From Synechocystis sp. PCC 6803 substr. PCC-P (lineage in GTDB: Bacteria; Cyanobacteriota; Cyanobacteriia; Cyanobacteriales; Microcystaceae), in the NCBI RefSeq assembly GCF_000284455.1, contig NC_017039.1, positions 960,001-992,000 on the forward strand: a DNA stretch of 32,000 bases. The letters run 5' to 3'. Shown piece after piece: positions 2,986 to 26,632 of the stretch. How positions within the stretch are numbered: the first letter of the stretch is position 1; each line of letters opens with the position of its first letter. The position numbers and the translations under genes are program-made. Below the pieces are notes generated by a model. It did not search any database. It was given only the letters and a program-made list of their open reading frames with translations, and had not been told where the DNA came from.

Positions 2986-3142
2986 ACTGCAACGGTCATC
3001 GAAAGCGATCAAAAAAATCTGTATCAATTTCGTAAACTGTTCTGGGTTTTAAGCCTATTTCTAAGTAAATGGCGATCGCCAGCCAAGATTAGCAAAGACA
3101 GTTTAAAATCGTGAAGAAAAGTTAAGAGCCTTGTCTCCCCCT

Positions 3143-6055
3143 ATGCCCGAACAAAATAGCATCCGTATTCGAGGCGCTAGACAACATAACCTAAAAAATG
3201 TGAATCTAGACCTGCCCCGCGATCGCCTGATTGTGTTTACGGGGGTGTCGGGGTCAGGCAAATCTTCCCTAGCTTTTGACACTATCTTTGCAGAGGGACA
3301 ACGGCGTTATGTGGAATCCCTCAGTGCTTACGCCCGACAGTTTTTGGGGCAGTTGGATAAGCCTGATGTGGACAGCATCGAAGGGTTGAGTCCGGCTATT
3401 TCCATCGATCAGAAATCCACTTCCCACAATCCCCGCTCCACCGTGGGTACGGTAACGGAAATTTACGACTACCTCCGTCTGTTATTTGGCAGGGCTGGCA
3501 GTCCCCATTGTCCCCACTGCCAACGGAATATTGCCCCCCAAACCATTGACCAAATGTGTGATCGGGTGATGGAGTTACCGGACAGAACTAAGTTTCAAAT
3601 TCTTGCTCCGGTGGTAAAGGGCAAAAAAGGGACCCATGTGCAACTACTTTCTAGCTTAGTTTCCCAAGGCTTTGTGCGGGTAAGAATTAACGGCGAAGTG
3701 CGAGAATTAAGTGACAATATTGAATTAAAAAAGAACCAAGCCCACACCATTGAAATAGTTATTGATCGCCTGATCAAAAAAGAAGGTTTACAGGAACGAT
3801 TGGTAGACTCACTCAGTACTTGTTTGAAGCAAGCAGAAGGCACCGCCATTATTGACATTTTGGACAAGCCAACGCTGGCAGTGTTAGATGGAGGTAAAAA
3901 AGACGACAAAGAAGCATTAAAAGCGGCAGAAAACGGCCAGGCTTACCATGCAGAGTTACCCAAGGAAATTATCTTTTCAGAAAACTTTGCCTGTCCAGAA
4001 CATGGGGCGGTGATGGATGAACTTTCCCCCCGCTTATTTTCTTTCAACTCCCCCTACGGTGCTTGTCCCGATTGCCATGGAATTGGCTTTGTGCGGTCTT
4101 TTTGCCCAGATTTGGTCATTCCTGATCCCGAAAAACCAGTGTATGTGGCGATCGCCCCCTGGTCAGAAAAAGATAATTCCTATTACTTGTCGTTACTGTA
4201 CAGTTTAGGACAGCATTTTGATTTTCAGTTACAAACTCCCTGGAAAAAGCTAACCAAAGAGCAAAAGGAAATAATTTTATACGGCACAGAAGAAGAAATT
4301 TGGTTTGAAGGGGAATCCCGTTACCGCAATAAACAAGGTTATTATCGTCGTTTTGCTGGAGCATTAAATATCCTGCAAAAAAATTATGATGAAACCAATT
4401 CCGATGCCATTAAGCAAAAGTTAGAAAAATATATTATTAATCAACCCTGTCACACCTGTGGCGGCAAAAGGTTAAAGCCAGAAGCATTAGCAGTAAAACT
4501 AGGGCAGTACAACATTAACAATTTAACCAGTGTGCCCATCCGCCAGACCCTGGAACGGATTGAAAATCTAGAGTTGACTTCCCGGCAAGCCATGATTGGG
4601 GAATTGGCGTTAAAGGAAATCAAAGCCCGTTTGCAATTTCTCCTGGACGTAGGTTTGGATTATCTGACCCTCGACCGGGCCGCCATGACTCTATCTGGCG
4701 GAGAAGCCCAACGGATTCGCCTGGCCACCCAAATTGGTTCCGGTCTCACCGGAGTTTTATACGTTTTGGATGAACCAAGCATTGGTTTGCATCAACGGGA
4801 CAACAATCGCCTGTTGGCCACTCTGACTAAGTTAAGGGATCTGGGCAATACGTTAATTGTGGTGGAGCATGATGAAGATACTATCCGCCACGCCGATTAT
4901 ATTGTTGACATTGGTCCGAAGGCGGGCATCCATGGTGGAGAAATTGTCTGTCAGGGGGATTTTCAGACTCTACTAAAAAATCAAAGGTCTCTTACTGGGG
5001 CTTACCTATCCGGTCGGGAGGCGATCGCCACTCCGGAGGAACGGAGAAATGGCAACGGAGCCAAGTTAACCCTCCAAGGTTGTTGCCATAATAATTTGCG
5101 TAATATTGATGTGACCATTCCCCTGGGCAAACTGGTGTGTGTTACAGGGGTATCCGGTTCCGGCAAGTCCACCCTAGTCAATGAATTGCTCCATCCGGCT
5201 CTGCAACATTATCTTTCTCGCCAAGTAGCTTTTCCCAAGAATTTAGGGGAAATCACCGGCCTCCAGGCGATCGATAAAGTCATTGTCATTGACCAATCCC
5301 CCATTGGCCGCACTCCCCGCTCCAACCCCGCCACCTATACAGGTATTTTTGACTCCATTCGAGAAATTTTCACCCAAACCATTGAAGCTAAAGCTAGGGG
5401 TTATAAGCCGGGACAATTTTCTTTCAACGTCAAAGGGGGACGCTGTGAAGCCTGCGCTGGTCAGGGAGTTAACGTGATTGAAATGAATTTTTTGCCCGAT
5501 GTGTATGTGCAATGTGATGTGTGCAAAGGAGCCAGATATAACCGGGAAACGTTGCAGGTGAAGTATAAAGGTCATTCCATTGCCGATGTGTTGGCCATGA
5601 CCACCGAGGAAGCCCTGACAGTGTTTGAGAATATTCCCAGGGCAGTAAATCGCCTGCAAACCTTGGTAGATGTGGGTTTGGGTTACATCAAACTGGGTCA
5701 ACCGGCCCCCACTTTATCCGGGGGAGAAGCCCAACGGGTCAAACTAGCTTCCGAGTTATCTCGCCGGGCCACGGGCAAAACTTTGTATTTAATTGATGAA
5801 CCCACCACCGGGCTATCTTTTTATGATGTCCACCATTTGCTCAACGTTTTGCAAAGACTAGTGGATAAAGGCAATTCTGTTTTAGTCATTGAACATAACC
5901 TGGATGTAATCCGCTGTAGCGATTGGATTATTGATCTGGGCCCCGAAGGTGGCGATCGGGGTGGAAAAATTATGGTTGCAGGAACCCCGGAAACAGTGGC
6001 GCAACATCCAAGTTCTTACACAGGGAAATATTTAGCGAAGGTATTGCAATCTTAA
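3143..6055 (+). CDS. uvrA: Excinuclease ABC subunit A
   Basis: Two ABC modules are present, with Walker A motifs GVSGSGKSS and GVSGSGKST and the signature LSGGEAQR twice. Several CxxC zinc clusters occur (CPHC, CPDCHG, CHTCGG, CEACAG, CDVCKG). The ORF opens at TTG 3131, but I chose ATG 3143 (MPEQNSIRIRGARQHNLKN). Confidence 0.97.
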   Translation: MPEQNSIRIRGARQHNLKNVNLDLPRDRLIVFTGVSGSGKSSLAFDTIFAEGQRRYVESLSAYARQFLGQLDKPDVDSIEGLSPAISIDQKSTSHNPRSTVGTVTEIYDYLRLLFGRAGSPHCPHCQRNIAPQTIDQMCDRVMELPDRTKFQILAPVVKGKKGTHVQLLSSLVSQGFVRVRINGEVRELSDNIELKKNQAHTIEIVIDRLIKKEGLQERLVDSLSTCLKQAEGTAIIDILDKPTLAVLDGGKKDDKEALKAAENGQAYHAELPKEIIFSENFACPEHGAVMDELSPRLFSFNSPYGACPDCHGIGFVRSFCPDLVIPDPEKPVYVAIAPWSEKDNSYYLSLLYSLGQHFDFQLQTPWKKLTKEQKEIILYGTEEEIWFEGESRYRNKQGYYRRFAGALNILQKNYDETNSDAIKQKLEKYIINQPCHTCGGKRLKPEALAVKLGQYNINNLTSVPIRQTLERIENLELTSRQAMIGELALKEIKARLQFLLDVGLDYLTLDRAAMTLSGGEAQRIRLATQIGSGLTGVLYVLDEPSIGLHQRDNNRLLATLTKLRDLGNTLIVVEHDEDTIRHADYIVDIGPKAGIHGGEIVCQGDFQTLLKNQRSLTGAYLSGREAIATPEERRNGNGAKLTLQGCCHNNLRNIDVTIPLGKLVCVTGVSGSGKSTLVNELLHPALQHYLSRQVAFPKNLGEITGLQAIDKVIVIDQSPIGRTPRSNPATYTGIFDSIREIFTQTIEAKARGYKPGQFSFNVKGGRCEACAGQGVNVIEMNFLPDVYVQCDVCKGARYNRETLQVKYKGHSIADVLAMTTEEALTVFENIPRAVNRLQTLVDVGLGYIKLGQPAPTLSGGEAQRVKLASELSRRATGKTLYLIDEPTTGLSFYDVHHLLNVLQRLVDKGNSVLVIEHNLDVIRCSDWIIDLGPEGGDRGGKIMVAGTPETVAQHPSSYTGKYLAKVLQS

Positions 6056-6192: not shown

Positions 6193-7728
6193 TCAAGATG
6201 CGTCTCGTGGTTCTTTCAAGTTCAACGCACGGATTAAACCATCATGCACTTTATAAAGGTCAGATTCAATAAACCCTTGTGATGGATAAAAACAGCGATA
6301 GCGCCAAGTGGTAGACGCTCCAATCTTAAAGCCGACCACTGAGTTGTCAAAAAGAAAACGGAGATCGTCCAGAATTCCAGTTTGCGTAAATTCAACCCCC
6401 AGTGCCCTTAGCTGCGATTCCAATTCGGCACGAGTGAATTGAGTTGATGCATGGTTTTGAATTGCAGAAAGTAACTTTACAATATGCGAGTACTGGATAA
6501 ACCATTCATCGAGTAGTTCCTGACGAAGCCATTCAGAATATCCTGGTTCGGCTGTGTAAATTGCTTCAACGGGCAGATGATCGAAATTAGCTGGGGTTTC
6601 TTCGAAAGGATCATTAACGCTTTCCTTCACAGCATCAATTGTACGGCTCAAGAAACAAATCATATCTCTTGGGCGCATCATGGTTCGTTTCAAGAGGTAG
6701 TTGGAAGGTTTTGAGCGCTGCCGCATCTCGTTTTTGTCAAATAATCCATCTAAATCCTCCACCGCATCCACGTCGTTTTTTTGTGCAAAATAAGAAAGGC
6801 GACGCAACAAGAGCTTAAAAAGGTCGTCACGATCCCACTTAAGCAGAGCGCCACAGTCTTCACGTAGTTTGTTAGAGTCGTTCAGTGGCAGTACGGAAAA
6901 GATATCCTCACGGAGGAAAATGATAGGTCGAACCACGCCATTATACTTTGCTGTTAGAGAGTCAGATGCGGACACTAGGCCAGCAAGGACTTTCCGCGAT
7001 ACATCGAGAGAGACATTATCCCAGGCCTCATCGACCCGATCAAAGCAGATAACTGTTCGATATTCACAAGGTTGAATTTTCGCAAGTGCGGCTTCCAGAT
7101 AAGCAATTATATTGCTAACGTTCTGGGCTAATGCAGTGCGGATGTCATTGTCTGCCGAAACTTCTTCAAAAGACAACTCACCGCCAGAAACTTCCACGGA
7201 GTCAAAGCTGCCATCTTCCAGGTCCAACCCTGCTCTTGGTAACTTTACCTTCGAAAGTCCGAGTAACTTCCGCCCAATTAATTGGTAAACCGATGGCAGA
7301 GGATGATCGAACAGTTTCTCAAGCAGGGTTTGGGCTTTTGCAATTGGTTGAGGGACTGTAACACCGTCCTTGGCGCAACGAGAGGCGTAAGCCTTGATAA
7401 CTTCGACTAAAATCACGAATCGCCAAGAGTGCTTATATGCGAGTGATTCGGCCGTTTCACTATTACTTAGTAGAGAATGTACTTTCCAGTTGTAATCCTC
7501 AAACGAAAGAGAAACAAGTATATCTTTATCACTAAGATACTGATGAGGGTTCTCTTTCAGATATCTGAAAACCGCAGTCTTGCCTGCTCCCTTTCTTCCC
7601 AGTACCAAAAATGATGACTTATTTGTGAGTACTGAATTCAAAACACCGTTATCATAGAAGTAATTGACGAGCTCGTCGTCTCGCTCAGCAGAAACCTTGC
7701 CAACATTTATCCATTTAAGAACGCTCAT
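6193..7728 (-). CDS. Orphan 511-aa P-loop NTPase of unknown function; from memory this is sll1717
   Basis: This is a long uninterrupted ORF. Walker A GRKGAGKT is at aa 44-51 (nt 7576-7599) and a Walker-B-like VICFDRVDEAW is at aa 226-236. An acidic low-complexity loop (LDLEDGSFDSVEVSGGELSFEEVSADND) lies between them. An MRPRDMICFL arginine motif sits at aa 351-360. The last ~130 aa contain no motif I recognise. Confidence 0.85.
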   Translation of the reverse strand: MSVLKWINVGKVSAERDDELVNYFYDNGVLNSVLTNKSSFLVLGRKGAGKTAVFRYLKENPHQYLSDKDILVSLSFEDYNWKVHSLLSNSETAESLAYKHSWRFVILVEVIKAYASRCAKDGVTVPQPIAKAQTLLEKLFDHPLPSVYQLIGRKLLGLSKVKLPRAGLDLEDGSFDSVEVSGGELSFEEVSADNDIRTALAQNVSNIIAYLEAALAKIQPCEYRTVICFDRVDEAWDNVSLDVSRKVLAGLVSASDSLTAKYNGVVRPIIFLREDIFSVLPLNDSNKLREDCGALLKWDRDDLFKLLLRRLSYFAQKNDVDAVEDLDGLFDKNEMRQRSKPSNYLLKRTMMRPRDMICFLSRTIDAVKESVNDPFEETPANFDHLPVEAIYTAEPGYSEWLRQELLDEWFIQYSHIVKLLSAIQNHASTQFTRAELESQLRALGVEFTQTGILDDLRFLFDNSVVGFKIGASTTWRYRCFYPSQGFIESDLYKVHDGLIRALNLKEPRDAS

Positions 7729-7796: not shown

Positions 7797-8680
7797 CCTC
7801 TTAGAAAGTGTTTGAAAAGTTTTAAGCAAGCCTTTGAAGCATGAGATGAACCATGGCAACATAGAGCATTGTCTCACTGGTAGTAGGTAAATATTCATAA
7901 TCCTTGCTTAAACGACGATAGCGGCCAAACCAAGCAAAGGTGCGCTCGACTACCCAACGGCGGGGTAGGACTTCAAAGCCTTTTTGTCCCTGCTTTTTGC
8001 TGACGACATTCAAATTCCAACCAAAAGTATGCTCCACCCAATAGATAAAATCCTTTCCGCCAAAGGTGCTATCAGTCCATATAACTTGCAGGCACTGCCA
8101 AAGGGGAGCAAACCAGGTAGCAAGTAGAATCAGACCCTGATGGTCGGAGCGATGGGCACCATGGACGACAACATCGAGAAGTAATCCCATGGTATCCACG
8201 AGGATTGTACGTTTACGACCATTGACCTTTTTTCCGCCGTCATAGCCAGTTTCTTGGCCAGTTCCAGCCTTTTTAAGTGACTGTGAATCTAAACAACCGG
8301 CACTAGGGTGAGTATTTCTTCCAGCTTTGAGCCGAACTTTCTCACGGAAGATACGGTTTAATTTTTTCCAGGTACCATCTTCGTGCCATTGCTGGAAATA
8401 ACCATAGACCGTTCGCCATTTAGGAAAATCATGGGGCAGAAGTCGCCAGGCACACCCCGTTCTGAACATGTAAAAAATAGCATTGAGTATCTCCCGCAGA
8501 CTAGTTTTCCGTTTTCTTCCCCCAGTTTTTGCTTTGGGTAAATGAGGTTCTACCAATTGCCACTGGCTATCAGTGATGTCCGTGCTGTAAAATTCCCGGA
8601 TTATCATTAATTATGGTGAAAATTTTATTCTTTTCACCATTTTCCATTCTTCACCCTACTTTTCAAACACGCTCTAAGAG
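7797..8680 (-). mobile_element. IS5-family insertion sequence, single-ORF type resembling the IS1031 group; from memory an ISY523 copy
   Basis: Terminal inverted repeats are CTCTTAGAAAGTGTTTGAAAAGT (7797-7819) and ACTTTTCAAACACGCTCTAAGAG (8658-8680), matching at 21 of 23 positions. The true ends are probably GAAAGTG (7803) and CGCTC (8675), giving 873 bp, flanked by TTA on the left and TAA on the right. The exact ends and the target duplication remain ambiguous. Confidence 0.85.
7822..8607 (-). CDS. IS5-family DDE transposase
   Basis: 261 aa. The N-terminus has ITDSQWQLVEPHLP, the HTH region typical of IS5-family transposases. DDE contexts are CLDSQSLK, IWTDSTFGG and VVERTFAWFGRYRRLSKDYE. 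It is a single ORF with no frameshift. Confidence 0.92.
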   Translation of the reverse strand: MIIREFYSTDITDSQWQLVEPHLPKAKTGGRKRKTSLREILNAIFYMFRTGCAWRLLPHDFPKWRTVYGYFQQWHEDGTWKKLNRIFREKVRLKAGRNTHPSAGCLDSQSLKKAGTGQETGYDGGKKVNGRKRTILVDTMGLLLDVVVHGAHRSDHQGLILLATWFAPLWQCLQVIWTDSTFGGKDFIYWVEHTFGWNLNVVSKKQGQKGFEVLPRRWVVERTFAWFGRYRRLSKDYEYLPTTSETMLYVAMVHLMLQRLA

Positions 8681-8741: not shown

Positions 8742-9155
8742 TTAATCCCTTAATAGTGCCCGAAATCCTGCCTGCTGAAAATGGATATCGGCAGTCAGTA
8801 CATCAGTGATTCCTCGATCCTGCATCACGATGAATGATATGCAGTCCACTAAACCCCATTCCTTGTCTTCTCGTTGCTTAAACAAATTAAATGCTGATTT
8901 GTATAGACTGTTAGTTAATAGAACGACTTCAACACTGGGATCAGTTTCCAGGGATTCTAAAAGTTGGATTGCCGCTTTTCTATATCTTTGCTTAGAAAGC
9001 GCATTGCCTATCTCTAGCAAGATACCTTGGGTTGTTACTAGACGAATTTTGTTAGCCTCAATTTGATTAGCAAGCTGAATAGCCCGTACATGATTTTGAT
9101 CAGTGATGGAAGATAATGCGATCGCAAAAGATGTATCTAAAAAAACTTCAGTCAT
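8742..9155 (-). CDS. vapC: PIN-domain toxin (VapC-like ribonuclease)
   Basis: Starting at ATG 9155 gives MTEVFLDTSFAIAL, the canonical PIN N-terminus with the first catalytic Asp. Further acidic positions lie in LLEIGN, LVDCISF and VLTADIHF. The start overlaps the upstream stop as ATGACTGA. The 157-aa ORF in the track is over-extended at its 5' end. Confidence 0.85.
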   Translation of the reverse strand: MTEVFLDTSFAIALSSITDQNHVRAIQLANQIEANKIRLVTTQGILLEIGNALSKQRYRKAAIQLLESLETDPSVEVVLLTNSLYKSAFNLFKQREDKEWGLVDCISFIVMQDRGITDVLTADIHFQQAGFRALLRD

Positions 9156-9387
9156 TGTCAGAAAGAGTTTCCCCATACAAATATTGATCAATTTTCTCTG
9201 ACCAATCAGGTTCACCCTGTAATTTTAAAGACTGAGCAGTTTGAAGAAACGTTTTAGGTGCTTTTACTTCATTTGGTAGAACACTTTCAACAACAATTCG
9301 CACCCTCGTACCTGCGGCAAGGTTTAAGGGAACTTCCAATTGAAGAGCTGTGCCGTCAAATACGGCTTCGAGTTCTTGAAGCATCAT
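9148..9387 (-). CDS. vapB: VapB-type antitoxin with a small beta-barrel (DUF104/AF2212-like) N-terminus
   Basis: 79 aa starting at ATGATG (9387/9384). The stretch AVFDGTALQLEVPLNLAAGTRVRIVVE resembles the short antitoxin fold found upstream of many PIN toxins. It has an acidic C-terminal tail and overlaps vapC by 8 nt. The upstream 55 codons of the 134-aa track ORF cover a promoter-like region and are probably not coding. Confidence 0.65.
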   Translation of the reverse strand: MMLQELEAVFDGTALQLEVPLNLAAGTRVRIVVESVLPNEVKAPKTFLQTAQSLKLQGEPDWSEKIDQYLYGETLSDND

Positions 9388-9412
9388 TTTATAAAAGCTG
9401 TGGACTTTTTTC

Positions 9413-9443
9413 AGTATAGCCTGACCTTCTTTTGTATTATCAA
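9413..9443 (-). promoter_or_regulatory. Putative sigma-70-type promoter of vapBC
   Basis: On the minus strand, TTGATA (9443-9438) is followed after 19 nt by TATACT (9418-9413), about 25 nt upstream of the vapB ATG. The call rests on motif matching only. Confidence 0.25.
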
Positions 9444-9567
9444 GACTTGAACGCTGAGTTGAAATCAAGCTCAATAGATACTGCTTTCTCAATTTCTTCC
9501 CAGTAAATATCTTCCAGGATGCCCTGTTTGTTCTTAATTCTCTGAGCATCAACAGCCCTTAGTTGGC

Positions 9568-9729: not shown

Positions 9730-9957
9730 CTAGGACTCCATAGGAATTTGGACATTGCACGGCGGCTCAGTTGTCCTTAAAATAATCGCCTCCAGTTCCA
9801 ATAATAACCTAGGGTTTTTTGAGTAAGGTATAAGGAATAACGTTTGAAGACTATCGGTTGAACCCAAGTTAGGTAAATATAATCTTTGCCGGATAGCTTC
9901 ATTACTCTGCAAGCAGGTTTTTATTATTCCTAATTGCTCTTGTATCGGTCTAGGCAT
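9730..9957 (-). CDS. Hypothetical 75-aa ORF; possibly a gene remnant or non-coding
   Basis: The call rests on the ORF alone. I see no recognisable motif and no convincing ribosome-binding site. Confidence 0.2.
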   Translation of the reverse strand: MPRPIQEQLGIIKTCLQSNEAIRQRLYLPNLGSTDSLQTLFLIPYSKNPRLLLELEAIILRTTEPPCNVQIPMES

Positions 9958-12739: not shown

Positions 12740-14209
12740 ATGGTATCGATCGCCGAACGGACAAAATTAAACCTGCCCCCCATTGCTGGTAAAGAAGCGG
12801 AAATATTAGCCGTTGTTAATGAAAATAAACCGGTGTTTTTACACCAAACCAATTTGCAGTTGGAGAATTTGCAATCGGCCTGTGCCTGCGCCCTGCATAT
12901 GCACCAACCCACCATTCCCGCCGGGCAAGATGGGGCGTTGATTTCCAATCTGCAGTACATGTTTGAGCATCCTGGGGAGGGGGATAACCACAACGCCGAT
13001 CCCTTTGCTTGGTGTTACCGTCGGTTGGGGGAAATTATTCCCCGTTTAGTGGCGGAAGGTTGCAATCCCCGCATCATGTTGGACTATTCTGGCAATTTGC
13101 TCTGGGCGTTCCAGCAAATGAGCCGCAACGACATTCTTGATGACCTGAAACGGTTAGCCTGTGATGCCCAATATCAGCCCTATGTGGAATGGTTGGGAAC
13201 CATGTGGAGCCATGCGGTGGCCCCTTCCACCCCCATCCCCGATTTGAAGCTACATATGTTAGCGTGGCAACAACACTTTGCTGATATTTTTGGTCTGGAA
13301 GCATTACAACGGGTGAAAGGTTTCTCGCCCCCGGAAATGCATTTACCCAACCATCCTGATACTTTGTTTGAGTATGTTAAAGCCCTAAAAGAATGCGGTT
13401 ACCGTTGGTTGATGGTGCAGGAACATTCCGTGGAAAACCTCGATGGTAGTGGCCTTTCCGGTGATCAAAAATATGTTCCCAACCGCTTAGTGGCCCGCAA
13501 CTCCCGGGGAGAAACGGTGAGCATTGTCGCTCTCATTAAAACCCAAGGTTCCGACACCAAGTTAGTGGCCCAAATGCAGCCCTATTACGAGGCCTTAGGG
13601 CGGGGTAAACAACCTGTGGGCAATCACCACATTCCTGCCTGTGTCACCCAAATTGCCGATGGGGAAAATGGCGGCGTCATGATGAACGAATTTCCCCCTG
13701 CCTACGAGCAAGCGACTCGCAAAATGGCGGAAAATGGCGGTAAATCCGGCACAGTGGCCATTAATGGCACGGAATATTTAGAACTACTGGAAGCGGCCGG
13801 CGTGCAAGAGTCCGATTTCCCCGCGATCCAAGCCATTCAACAACACAAAATTTGGCAACGGGTTAATCCCGATTCCCCCAGCCATGAACAGGTGGAAAAG
13901 GCGATCGCCGAATTGAAAGCCACGGACCACCAATTTGGGATGGATGGAGCTTCTTGGACTAATGATCTCAGTTGGGTACAGGGCTATGAAAATGTGCTCG
14001 AACCAATGAACCAACTCAGCGCCAAATTCCACCAAAAATTCGATCGCTTAGTGGCGGAAGATCCCAGCGTTACCCAACGGGAGGATTATCAAAACGCTCT
14101 GCTATATCTGTTATTAGTGGAAACTAGTTGCTTCCGTTATTGGGGCCAAGGCACCTGGACTGATTATGCCCGGGAATTGTACCGTCGGGGGGAAGAAGCT
14201 TTAGCTTAA
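12740..14209 (+). CDS. Glycoside hydrolase family 57-like protein
   Basis: 489 aa. It has the N-terminal ALHMHQP motif and an ADGENGGV region as seen in GH57 alpha-glucan enzymes. Substrate specificity cannot be inferred. Confidence 0.7.
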   Translation: MVSIAERTKLNLPPIAGKEAEILAVVNENKPVFLHQTNLQLENLQSACACALHMHQPTIPAGQDGALISNLQYMFEHPGEGDNHNADPFAWCYRRLGEIIPRLVAEGCNPRIMLDYSGNLLWAFQQMSRNDILDDLKRLACDAQYQPYVEWLGTMWSHAVAPSTPIPDLKLHMLAWQQHFADIFGLEALQRVKGFSPPEMHLPNHPDTLFEYVKALKECGYRWLMVQEHSVENLDGSGLSGDQKYVPNRLVARNSRGETVSIVALIKTQGSDTKLVAQMQPYYEALGRGKQPVGNHHIPACVTQIADGENGGVMMNEFPPAYEQATRKMAENGGKSGTVAINGTEYLELLEAAGVQESDFPAIQAIQQHKIWQRVNPDSPSHEQVEKAIAELKATDHQFGMDGASWTNDLSWVQGYENVLEPMNQLSAKFHQKFDRLVAEDPSVTQREDYQNALLYLLLVETSCFRYWGQGTWTDYARELYRRGEEALA

Positions 14210-14307
14210 TTTTTCCGGTTTACTGGGGACAATAAGCTTGGACATAGTTAGGTAAAATTTGACCAACTTTGCAGTCTCCCGGTAAATCATCAATCCCATT
14301 GCCTGCC

Positions 14308-15744
14308 ATGGCTGATCGCCAATCGTTGGAAGAAGCTCTCCGCCGAATTTGGGGCTATGACCACTTTCGCTATCCCCAGGGAGAAGTAATTGATTGCCTA
14401 TTGGCCAGGCGGGATTGTCTGGTGGTACTACCCACTGGAGGAGGGAAATCTATTTGCTTTCAATTGCCGGCATTATTGGGGGAGGGATTAACCCTGGTGG
14501 TTTCACCGTTGGTGGCCCTCATGGAAGACCAGGTACAAAGTTTACGTAGGCAAAATCTGCCCGCCGCCTGTCTCCATAGCCAATTGAGTCGCCCCGAAAG
14601 AAAACAGGTGTTGTACCAATTGGGGCAACAGCAACTAAAGCTCCTTTACCTTTCGCCGGAAACCCTGCTGAGTGAGCCAGTCTGGAATTTGCTCCGGCAA
14701 CCCCAGGTCAAATTGCAAGGAATCATGCTCGATGAAGCCCATTGTTTGGTGCAGTGGGGAGATAGTTTTCGTCCTGCCTACCGCCGTTTGGGAGCCCTGC
14801 GTCGGGGATTAGGCAGAGACAAGGGCCAGATTCCCCTGGCCGCCTTCACCGCCACAGCCGATCGCCAGCAACAGAATTTGATCGTAGAAGGATTGAATTT
14901 GCGATCGCCGGAGTGTTTTCAGGTCAGCCCCCATCGCCCCCAACTACATCTGAAAGTCAAAATGGTGCTGAGTGAATATTGCCGCCGGCAACAATTACGG
15001 CGTTTTTTGCTCAAGCATCTCCAGGAAAGCGGTTTGATTTACGTCCGTACCCGCACCATGGCCATCAACTTAGCCCAATGGTTGCAGGAACGGGGCTTTG
15101 ACAGCGAAGCTTACCATGGCGGTTTGGGCCCCCACCAACGACGACAGTTGGAACAAAAATGGTTAACGGGGCAAATTTCTTCGGTGGTTTGCACCAATGC
15201 CTTTGGCCTGGGCATAGACAAGCCCGATACCCGTTGGGTGTTACATTACCAAGCCCCCCTGATGTTGATGGATTATCTCCAGGAAGTGGGACGGGCCGGA
15301 CGAGATTTGCAACCGGCAGAATGTCTCACCTTAGTTAGTGAACCCACCGGTTGGTTGGACTCTGGCGATCGCCAATTGCGTCAGTATTTTTTGAGTCAAG
15401 CCAGCAAATATCTACAACGAGCCGAGGTCTTGAGTCAACAAATTCCATCCCAGGGCAACCTAGGGCAACTAAAAGCCCATTTTCCCGATTTGGAAATGGC
15501 TCTGGCGTGGCTCCACCGTCGGGGTAATTTAGAGTGGTTAGATCCATTTAACTACCGCATTAACCCCGGCCATTACCAGGCCAATCCCCTGGAGGAATTG
15601 AAAAGCCAGTATCGCCTGATGACCCAATACCTGACCACTTCCCGTTGTCGTTGGCAAACGATTTTGGTTGCCTTTGGTGACAATTCTCCGGCGGCGAGGC
15701 GACCCTGTGGCACCTGTGATAATTGTTTAGTTGGACGCTGCTAA
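14308..15744 (+). CDS. recQ: ATP-dependent DNA helicase RecQ, short form without an HRDC domain
   Basis: Motifs are PTGGGKS (Walker A), the DEAH box in MLDEAHCLVQWG, FTATA, AFGLGIDKPDTRWVLHY and QEVGRAGRD. A C-terminal Cys cluster reads CRWQ...CGTCDNC. I prefer ATG 14308 (MADRQSLEEALRRIWGYDHFR) over TTG 14269. Confidence 0.9.
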   Translation: MADRQSLEEALRRIWGYDHFRYPQGEVIDCLLARRDCLVVLPTGGGKSICFQLPALLGEGLTLVVSPLVALMEDQVQSLRRQNLPAACLHSQLSRPERKQVLYQLGQQQLKLLYLSPETLLSEPVWNLLRQPQVKLQGIMLDEAHCLVQWGDSFRPAYRRLGALRRGLGRDKGQIPLAAFTATADRQQQNLIVEGLNLRSPECFQVSPHRPQLHLKVKMVLSEYCRRQQLRRFLLKHLQESGLIYVRTRTMAINLAQWLQERGFDSEAYHGGLGPHQRRQLEQKWLTGQISSVVCTNAFGLGIDKPDTRWVLHYQAPLMLMDYLQEVGRAGRDLQPAECLTLVSEPTGWLDSGDRQLRQYFLSQASKYLQRAEVLSQQIPSQGNLGQLKAHFPDLEMALAWLHRRGNLEWLDPFNYRINPGHYQANPLEELKSQYRLMTQYLTTSRCRWQTILVAFGDNSPAARRPCGTCDNCLVGRC

Positions 15745-26551: not shown

Positions 26552-26632
26552 GCGGATGTGGCGGAATTGGTATACGCGCACGTTTGAGGGGCGTGTGGCT
26601 TTGCCTTGCGAGTTCGAGTCTCGCCATCCGCA
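26552..26632 (+). tRNA. trnL: tRNA-Leu(GAG), type II with a long variable arm; CCA is not encoded
   Basis: I folded it by hand. The acceptor stem is GCGGATG/CATCCGC with discriminator A. The D arm is GCG-GAATTGGTATA-CGC. The anticodon stem is CACGT/GCGTG with loop TTGAGGG, giving anticodon GAG and G37. The variable arm is 12 nt and the T arm is GCGAG-TTCGAGT-CTCGC. Confidence 0.88.

Follow-up and report, generated by a model that had tools for sequence, protein, structure and literature searches.

Sll1717 of Synechocystis sp. PCC 6803 as a candidate single-gene immune-type NTPase in the family of the anti-phage protein DS-41

What is the P-loop ATPase encoded by sll1717 built for, a gene that has been carried as a "hypothetical protein" since 1996 in Synechocystis sp. 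PCC 6803, the most used cyanobacterial model organism? We examined it in a 32,000-nt stretch of contig NC_017039.1, the whole of which we call the window and within which positions are counted unless a locus identifier is given. An initial annotation, made from the sequence alone, had described a clean 511-codon open reading frame (ORF) encoding an orphan P-loop ATPase, possibly part of a defence-like system. We found that the frame is indeed single and unbroken and that it lies on the minus strand, with its ATG at 7728 and its stop at 6193-6195, the plus strand being closed by stop codons in that frame, and that the 511-aa product is an exact match to BAA17453.1, the Sll1717 protein. We consider it probable, with a good deal of room for doubt, that Sll1717 is a horizontally acquired, stand-alone immune-type nucleoside triphosphatase (NTPase), a bare ORC/STAND-like switch without a fused effector, belonging to the family of the anti-phage protein DS-41.

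Family membership and the relation to DS-41

We found that Sll1717 scores 251.2 bits (E 2.2e-74) against the NCBIfam model NF047389, "P-loop ATPase, Sll1717 family", for which the cutoff is 75, with aa 10-502 aligned to model positions 2-454 of 454; the protein is the namesake of this family, whose name the initial annotation had given correctly. The same family holds DS-41, described as system "AAA2" in the DefensePredictor study (Science 2026, PMC13092281), which consists of one 502-aa E. coli gene (WP_033812887.1). Cloned alone, DS-41 lowered phage plating (in log10 units) by 5.3 for T4, 5 for Bas1, 4.7 for Candy, 3.6 for Bas63, 2.7 for Bas3, 2.5 for Bas69, 2.3 for Bas19 and 1.4 for Bas25, and the study gives no mechanism for it (PMC13092281). 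Our literature search for follow-up work on DS-41 returned nothing beyond that paper. A full-length, 99%-identical copy of DS-41 (P0271, 502 aa) reaches 97.6 bits on NF047389 and 414 bits on NF053860, the model named "DS41_1_antiphage", the published partial DS-41 sequence reaches 92.2 bits on NF047389, and close relatives of DS-41 are already named "P-loop ATPase, Sll1717 family" by NCBI. Since DS-41 and Sll1717 both lie above the NF047389 cutoff, they belong to one curated family, which comprises 1863 clusters at 50% identity with E <=1e-3, 514 of them with E <=1e-10, and nearly all of whose members are 470-530 aa long.

Within this family, sequence comparison places Sll1717 and DS-41 in separate, distant subfamilies, and their homology is visible through profiles only. 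Direct BLASTP of the two proteins gives short marginal segments alone, and profile-profile alignment (hhalign) of the two subfamilies reaches E 4.6e-5 across 187 columns, which begin at Walker B and extend as far as the first part of the C-terminal domain. Like DS-41, Sll1717 is a single gene of about 500 codons (511 aa, with no conserved neighbour across 38 loci) without an effector domain, and the two proteins have in common the order of an N-terminal segment, Walker A, a long insertion, Walker B, a P-R lid and a winged-helix-like C-terminus. They differ in that they are about 15% identical, in that Sll1717 stays below the equivalog cutoff of 370 on NF053860, and in the Trp and Asp that the DS-41 clade carries in place of the sensor-1 Arg and the conserved C-terminal His. 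Furthermore, anti-phage protection has been demonstrated for DS-41 in E. coli, whereas Sll1717 is known here from its sequence. The defence guess is thus not the discovery of a new class, the family being curated and having had one validated anti-phage member since 2025/26. The word "uncharacterised" in the initial annotation accordingly no longer fits the family and still fits Sll1717, which is only a remote relative of the validated member.

As the initial annotation had suggested, we looked for fusion partners in homologues. A few distant members above the NF047389 cutoff are longer: P0210 (964 aa) carries a C-terminal PF20706 GT4-conflict glycosyltransferase domain (427 bits), and P0229 (697 aa) carries two PF19960 EAD7 domains inserted right after the P-loop helix. 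Both GT4-conflict and EAD7 have been described as effector or adaptor modules of the systems by which prokaryotes counter invaders (PMC8195603), so that the ATPase module is sometimes wired to conflict outputs, which supports a sensor or switch role for the core.

Upon searching Sll1717 against other models, Pfam returned sub-threshold P-loop matches only, namely ORC-CDC6-like (PF24389; 21.2 bits, cutoff 27, in the P-loop region only), AAA_16 (19 bits against a cutoff of 32.6) and ATPase_2 (15.2 bits against 33.2), and the ORC/Cdc6 model TIGR02928 gave 11.2 bits against a cutoff of 181.3, which leaves the protein outside that family. The sole PADLOC v2 match was to PDC-M28C (E 3.9e-9); it takes in the Walker B-to-lid part of the protein (aa 200-351) and covers 146/480 model positions; PDC-M28 is a multi-gene PADLOC candidate, to which this match is partial and whose partners are neither in the window nor conserved beside homologues. 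In agreement with the initial annotation, no nuclease, TIR, SIR2 or protease family was found in Sll1717 with Pfam, NCBIfam or PADLOC, and no membrane segment is predicted (top 19-residue Kyte-Doolittle hydropathy 1.19). Sll1717 and a 50-sequence family profile, compared with the sequences of solved structures, gave P-loop-level or spurious matches only (phenylalanine ammonia-lyase, ABC ATPases); as far as sequence search can tell, no relative has a solved structure.

Predicted fold and conserved residues

We built an AlphaFold2 model of Sll1717 on 41 homologues, which reached a predicted local distance difference test score (pLDDT) of 85.1 and a predicted template-modelling score (pTM) of 0.83. 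In the model, the N-terminal segment (aa 1-40) is followed by strand 1, the P-loop and helix 1 (41-59) and strand 2 (69-75), and the long helical insertion leads into the Walker B strand (aa 224-230), after which come strand 4 with R273 at its end, the N-K287-L-R289-E-D-C-G helix, strand 5 and the lid. The C-terminal domain (aa 388-511) is made up of four helices and a beta-hairpin. Nucleotide-binding domain (NBD), insertion, lid and winged helix occupy all 511 aa, and no further domain is found in the model or with Pfam, NCBIfam and PADLOC. The initial annotation had read off the Walker motifs GRKGAGKT and VICFDRVDEAW and an arginine motif, MRPRDMICFL (aa 351-360), and had placed an acidic loop between the Walker motifs. 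All three motifs lie at the residues it gave, and the loop appears as a net charge of -6 over residues 160-198, with pLDDT <50 in its central part (Table 1).

Searched with Foldseek against the PDB as a whole chain, the model matched best the archaeal AAA+ protein SSO1545 (2fna; E 1.6e-5, target-normalised TM 0.56). Cdc6 (1fnn; E 3.3e-5), Orc1/Cdc6 on DNA (2qby; E 6e-5), ORC4 and also Orc1 and Cdc6 subunits (E 2e-4 to 4e-3), the BREX ATPase BrxC (E 1.2e-3 to 3e-3, query-normalised TM 0.33-0.35), RdrA (E 3.1e-2) and the plant nucleotide-binding leucine-rich-repeat receptors (NLRs) ZAR1 and Sr35 (E 3.7e-2 to 0.13) were also matched. For the ORC/Cdc6 arrangement of AAA+ core, lid and C-terminal winged helix, the whole-chain matches have E 1.6e-5 to 1e-4 at TM values of only 0.3-0.56. 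On this model, the core of Sll1717 is predicted to be of the ORC/Cdc6- or STAND-like AAA+ fold class, as the initial annotation had surmised. A Foldseek search of viral structures (BFVD) gave no match below E 1e-3.

The C-terminal ~130 aa, in which the initial annotation could place no motif, are instead strongly conserved and are modelled as a winged-helix-like domain. When this domain was modelled alone (pLDDT 74), its top Foldseek matches were almost all winged-helix proteins (PadR, ArsR/SmtB, MarR, Fur, STIV F93 and the C-termini of 2fna and 2qen), with weak scores of E 0.1-1. The domain has a net charge of -5 and its would-be recognition helices one of -3, an acidity more in keeping with a STAND-type intramolecular winged helix than with one that binds origins.

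Next, we examined residue conservation in two alignments, one of 41 Sll1717-subfamily sequences from many phyla (A1) and one of 50 family-wide members including the DS-41 clade (A5). In the former, mean column identity is 67% along the whole chain, and Sll1717 retains every residue that is invariant across the 41 homologues. Family-wide, A14, G44, G47, G49, K50, D230, D233, R310, P353 and R354 are invariant in 50/50 members, K287 (45/50) and W298 are nearly so, and R273 (44/50), D275 (44/50) and H495 (43/50) are kept in most. With this invariant set present, the full AAA+/STAND-type set for nucleotide binding and hydrolysis is retained. R289 is invariant within the Sll1717 subfamily, and by analogy with AAA+ topology the region of R273, K287 and R289 may provide the putative sensor-1 and finger functions. 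The least conserved large regions, leaving aside the short 376-387 linker, are the insertion and the lid, with variable patches at aa 109-135 and 206-230 (insertion), 310-331 (lid), 375-390 (linker) and 431-459 (winged-helix helices 2-3). The V-H-D-G-L motif (KVHDGLIRAL, aa 493-502, nt 6223-6252), kept in 43/50 family members, resembles by eye the nucleotide-contacting MHD motif of the NLR winged helix.

NB-ARC and other STAND proteins carry the motif series kinase-2, RNBS-B, GLPL and MHD. Beside it, the hhhhD..DE.W motif of Sll1717, its Arg-ending strand, its P-containing lid motif and V-H-D-G-L suggest by eye a likeness to NB-ARC, which we take as a lead only. The STAND NTPases (Avs/AVAST, bacterial NACHT and the NB-ARC of NLRs) have the same order of NBD, helical lid and winged helix, and ZAR1 and Sr35 are among the Foldseek matches; for DS-41, an HHblits search in the DefensePredictor paper reached Avs1B with a probability of 98.1 (PMC13092281). 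Sll1717 differs from the tripartite STAND architecture in having neither an N-terminal effector nor a C-terminal repeat sensor (TPR, LRR, WD40), in scoring below the Pfam AAA_16/nSTAND thresholds and in having its two Walker motifs separated by the ~145-aa helical insertion. ORC/Cdc6 and the archaeal Arch_ATPase proteins (SSO1545, 2fna; PAB2304, 2qen) are the best structural matches, with an AAA+ core and then a C-terminal winged helix, and the insertion of Sll1717 lies at the position of the initiator-specific motif. They differ from Sll1717, which is far below the ORC/Cdc6 sequence-model cutoffs, has an acidic winged helix and is sporadic and mobile rather than present as one copy per genome beside an origin. 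BrxC/PglY of BREX shares with Sll1717 an ORC-like AAA+ fold in a defence setting, but BrxC is part of a six-gene BREX operon, and no BREX gene occurs in the window or as a conserved neighbour of homologues.

Two further classes were considered and rejected. KAP NTPases often have membrane helices between Walker A and Walker B. A PifA-like KAP-family assignment, which the long Walker A-B spacing and the P-R motif had suggested, was dropped upon finding that PF07693 is absent at E up to 1 and that the protein has no hydrophobic segment. A helper ATPase of an insertion sequence (IS), of the IstB, TniB or MuB kind, was likewise rejected, as the terminal repeats of the adjacent IS5 element exclude sll1717 and homologues have no conserved transposase neighbour.

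Distribution, neighbourhoods and competing explanations

The nearest relatives of Sll1717, 77-80% identical, are planctomycetal (Aureliella, Crateriforma), and homologues of 56-62% identity occur in Chlorobiaceae, Salmonella, Bacteroidia, Flavobacterium, Opitutaceae, Castellaniella, Janthinobacterium and Erwinia. Identities of 57-80% thus extend over Planctomycetota, Chlorobiota, Bacteroidota, Verrucomicrobiota and Pseudomonadota. Within the cyanobacteria, relatives were found only in a Cyanobium metagenome-assembled genome (MAG; 54%) and, as a fragment, on an Acaryochloris plasmid (74% identical across 52% of the length), and the Sll1717 phylogeny is not congruent with that of the hosts. Such identity across phyla, together with nearest relatives outside the cyanobacteria, indicates horizontal transfer.

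Among complete E. coli genomes, 6/5426 carry a copy, and 4/6 copies are split by IS1. In E. coli (L065:9001-11087, NZ_AP022177.1) and Salmonella (L001) the 61%-identical homologue adjoins ttcA, which we take to be the attachment site of the Rac prophage, and a degraded integrase lies beside the E. coli copy. The Erwinia copy is inside a lambdoid prophage, where its accessory region is flanked by the early-left genes on one side and by Dam, Dcm and the integrase on the other. On the Klebsiella IncF plasmid pKGB1a (L060), a 59%-identical copy stands beside pifC and a gene for a 735-aa P-loop NTPase, and the locus looks like a PifA-type phage-exclusion locus; on its sister plasmid pKp_SB61170_1 (L061) a 24%-identical family member takes its place at this site. 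Both are related IncFIB/IncFII plasmids, and the shared site is next to RepB and a tyrosine recombinase. Additionally, relatives were found on 10 IMG/VR contigs, among which L066, with a 79%-identical homologue, is only putatively viral, two neighbouring ORFs having given no convincing phage matches.

Upon all-against-all clustering of ~930 ORFs from 54 loci, we found no conserved adjacent gene across 38 homologous loci, with the exception of lepA. Five related Rhodobacterales-type genomes have lepA upstream of the homologue, owing to a common insertion site, and it is the only shared neighbour in the main subfamily. The ORFs downstream of and co-directional with homologues show no mutual similarity by relaxed BLAST. 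The description of the gene as an orphan without a partner is therefore upheld. The 145 flanking proteins examined, two genes on each side, are a mixture of defence or mobile-element genes and core genes. The former include type I restriction-modification, MADS mad3 and mad8, type IV restriction, ParE, an AbiEii-like AAA_21 protein, Mu-like prophage genes and one IS. With DS-41 in the same NCBIfam family, the conflict-domain fusions and the copies in a prophage, on plasmids and at an integration hotspot, the defence-like reading of the initial annotation gains support.

In a distant clade (25-28% identity), composed mostly of Krumholzibacteriia and Latescibacteria MAGs (L042-L055), we observed a conserved multi-gene neighbourhood with flanking clusters common to 7-9 loci, which could be vertical synteny in one lineage or a true multi-gene system. 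We also observed that uvrA adjoins a family gene in two unrelated genomes, namely in the window (3131-6055) and in Sphingomonas (L023:777-3782), gyrB in Xylophilus (L006:7174-9654) and dnaN in Rhodoblastus (L027:8733-9941). Insertion beside conserved core genes likely explains this apparent recurrence of DNA-metabolism neighbours.

If, as we infer, Sll1717 itself defends its host, a switch-like mechanism can be proposed for it. In the resting state, the winged helix would be packed on the nucleotide-bound ATPase core. A phage-derived trigger, either protein or nucleic acid, would be sensed via the variable surfaces of the ~145-aa insertion, the lid and winged-helix helices 2-3, upon which ATP exchange or binding would lead to oligomerisation through the arginine/lysine finger. 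The assembled ATPase would then block infection itself. It might sequester or remodel a component of phage replication or structure, act through a host factor encoded elsewhere or set off an abortive response. A bolder version, which we offer tentatively and think doubtful, is that Sll1717-type proteins are the smallest self-sufficient immune NTPases, NOD-like switches reduced to ATPase, lid and winged helix, in which the ATP-driven oligomer is the effector and halts infection without cell killing by trapping or remodelling phage DNA or a conserved component of phage replication or structure, the hypertrophied insertion serving as sensing or output surface. If that were true, the ~60% identity across phyla would reflect a highly conserved target and not an arms race.

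The link to the DS-41 family gives sll1717 a testable function and adds a chromosomal single-gene candidate to the small defence repertoire of Synechocystis. Furthermore, with a family that is large, horizontally spread and without a recognisable effector, how an ORC/STAND-like ATPase stops phages becomes a mechanistic question, and the extreme conservation and high-confidence model of the Sll1717 subfamily suit it to biochemistry and cryo-electron microscopy.

Several observations weigh against an immune role. The Sll1717 subfamily is far from DS-41: identity in the family alignment is ~14-16%, the hhalign probability is only 68.5%, and the full-length match of Sll1717 to NF053860 reaches 49.6 bits (E 2.8e-13) where the cutoff is 370, so that function may differ between the two subfamilies. 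Classical defence islands are not the setting of many homologues. The defence families among the 145 neighbours are few, with 2-4 occurrences each in uncontrolled counts, and many loci are flanked by housekeeping genes (uvrA, gyrB, dnaN, lepA, secA, ffh, RNase II-type). An identity of ~60% across phyla is unusually high for an immune sensor. By tblastn, no homologue was found in 50,697 sequenced phage genomes, which indicates that this is not a common phage gene. The winged-helix assignment draws on weak Foldseek scores (E 0.1-1), with which it is consistent without being statistically secure. Expression of sll1717 in Synechocystis is uncertain, an IS5 end lying 70 nt upstream, and a consensus scan of the 70-nt gap between IS5 and the ATG found no sigma-70-type promoter. 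Finally, our literature search found no paper mentioning sll1717.

We weighed three other explanations, each of which we judge weaker than an immune-type NTPase. The mobile settings raise a role in the elements themselves other than defence, in which the protein would serve integrative elements or plasmids, either as an initiator or loader of ORC/Cdc6 type or in maintenance or addiction, and would bind DNA via its winged helix and the insertion in its AAA+ core. The best fold matches are indeed initiator-clade AAA+ proteins with a C-terminal winged helix (Cdc6, Orc1, ORC4), and copies lie beside an integrase remnant, near RepB on IncF plasmids and inside a prophage. We regard such a role as distinctly unlikely, given that around most copies, which are solitary, other element genes are lacking, that the prophage and plasmids have their own initiators (Phage_rep_O with DnaB; RepB), that a winged helix of charge -5 with recognition helices of -3 is unlike an origin-binding one, that the initiator models score low (TIGR02928, 11 bits against 181; PF24389, 21 against 27) and that DS-41 cloned alone gives phage resistance. 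The uvrA, gyrB and dnaN neighbours described above could in turn point to a chromosomal accessory factor of DNA repair or replication that works with UvrA, GyrB or DnaN. This we hold to be very improbable: uvrA is convergent with the family gene in the window and co-directional with it in Sphingomonas, neighbours are unrelated at most loci, the phylogeny departs from that of the hosts, and the sporadic distribution, with 4/6 of the few E. coli copies split by IS1, and the position beside core genes fit insertion better than an operon.

The remaining explanation concerns the present activity of the gene and not what the protein is built for, namely that in Synechocystis sll1717 is a passenger, silent or in decay, that arrived with a mobile islet, later lost its promoter to the IS5 insertion and so has no function there at present. 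The IS5 end so close to the ATG and the lack of a consensus promoter in the gap speak for it, as do the Acaryochloris plasmid, which carries a fragment only, and the IS1-disrupted E. coli copies, which indicate that the gene is readily lost. The ORF is nevertheless full-length and intact and has kept all residues invariant in 41 homologues, and read-through from the co-directional transposase gene or a non-consensus promoter is possible; we think the passenger explanation unlikely. The immune-type NTPase stays our preferred interpretation; in Synechocystis the gene may be silenced, or such read-through may transcribe it.

The sll1717 locus in the window

The features of the gene and its immediate neighbours are collected in Table 1. 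The G+C content of sll1717 is 44.1%, against 47.8% for the window. On one side, uvrA, on the plus strand, stands tail-to-tail with sll1717, with zwf and a cysteine-synthase-like gene located upstream of uvrA. On the other side, upstream of sll1717 and on the same strand, lies a complete IS5-family element, followed by the PIN-domain gene sll1715 (8742-9215; PIN match E 2.7e-11) and the overlapping ORF sll1714 (9148-9552). The two are a predicted type II toxin-antitoxin pair, and sll1714 has been re-annotated as a shorter ORF (PMC4963859). Neither sll1714, the presumed antitoxin, nor a further 75-aa ORF (9730-9957, minus strand) has a family match in Pfam, NCBIfam or PADLOC. Beyond the pair, the genes are housekeeping again (class I/II aminotransferase, HU, GNAT acetyltransferase). 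Low G+C, an IS5 element and a toxin-antitoxin pair between housekeeping genes make the phrase "small accessory islet", used in the initial annotation, a correct description.

Table 1. Features of sll1717 and of the adjoining islet (positions in the window; aa, residues of Sll1717)
Feature	Residues	Position	Strand	Basis
sll1717 coding sequence, P-loop ATPase, Sll1717 family		6193..7728	-	ORF and translation, NF047389 score, identity to BAA17453.1
Conserved N-terminal segment (W6, G10, A14, E15, R16, D17 ... G28, V29)	aa 1-40	7609..7728	-	Columns invariant in A1
Walker A, GRKGAGKT	aa 44-51	7576..7599	-	Sequence; G44, G47, G49, K50 family-invariant
Helical insertion, ~145 aa, modelled as all-helical, strand 2 to Walker B strand	aa 79-222	7063..7494	-	AlphaFold secondary structure
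Acidic loop inside the insertion, predicted disordered	aa 165-182	7183-7236	-	pLDDT <50
Walker B, VICFDRVDEAW	aa 226-236	7021..7053	-	D230 and D233 invariant in 50/50
Sensor-1 and putative Arg/Lys-finger region (R273-E-D ... N-K287-L-R289-E-D-C-G)	aa 273-293	6850..6912	-	Conservation of R273, D275, K287
Lid (helical) domain, with R310 and sensor-2-like M-R-P353-R354-D (6664-6678)	aa 300-375	6604..6831	-	Model helices 300-317, 341-348, 353-371
C-terminal winged-helix-like domain, with V-H495-D-G-L	aa 388-511	6196..6567	-	AlphaFold model, Foldseek
IS5-family insertion sequence, outside sll1717		7798..8680	-	23-nt terminal inverted repeats 7798-7820 and 8658-8680
IS5 transposase		7822-8607	co-directional with sll1717	Pfam DDE_Tnp_1/DUF4096; NF033580
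sll1715 (PIN) and sll1714, predicted toxin-antitoxin pair		8742..9552	-	PIN domain match; PMC4963859

Further along the window, a 489-aa ORF (12740-14209, plus strand) has no match in Pfam, NCBIfam or PADLOC, and directly downstream of it a short RecQ-like helicase (14269-15744, plus strand; DEAD, Helicase_C, RecQ_Zn_bind) scores 314 bits on the PADLOC model PsyrT and 362 bits on DpdF; the helicase locus may be an ordinary recQ or a PsyrTA-like two-gene module. The sole Rfam/ARAGORN match in the window is a tRNA-Leu(GAG) gene at 26552-26632 on the plus strand.

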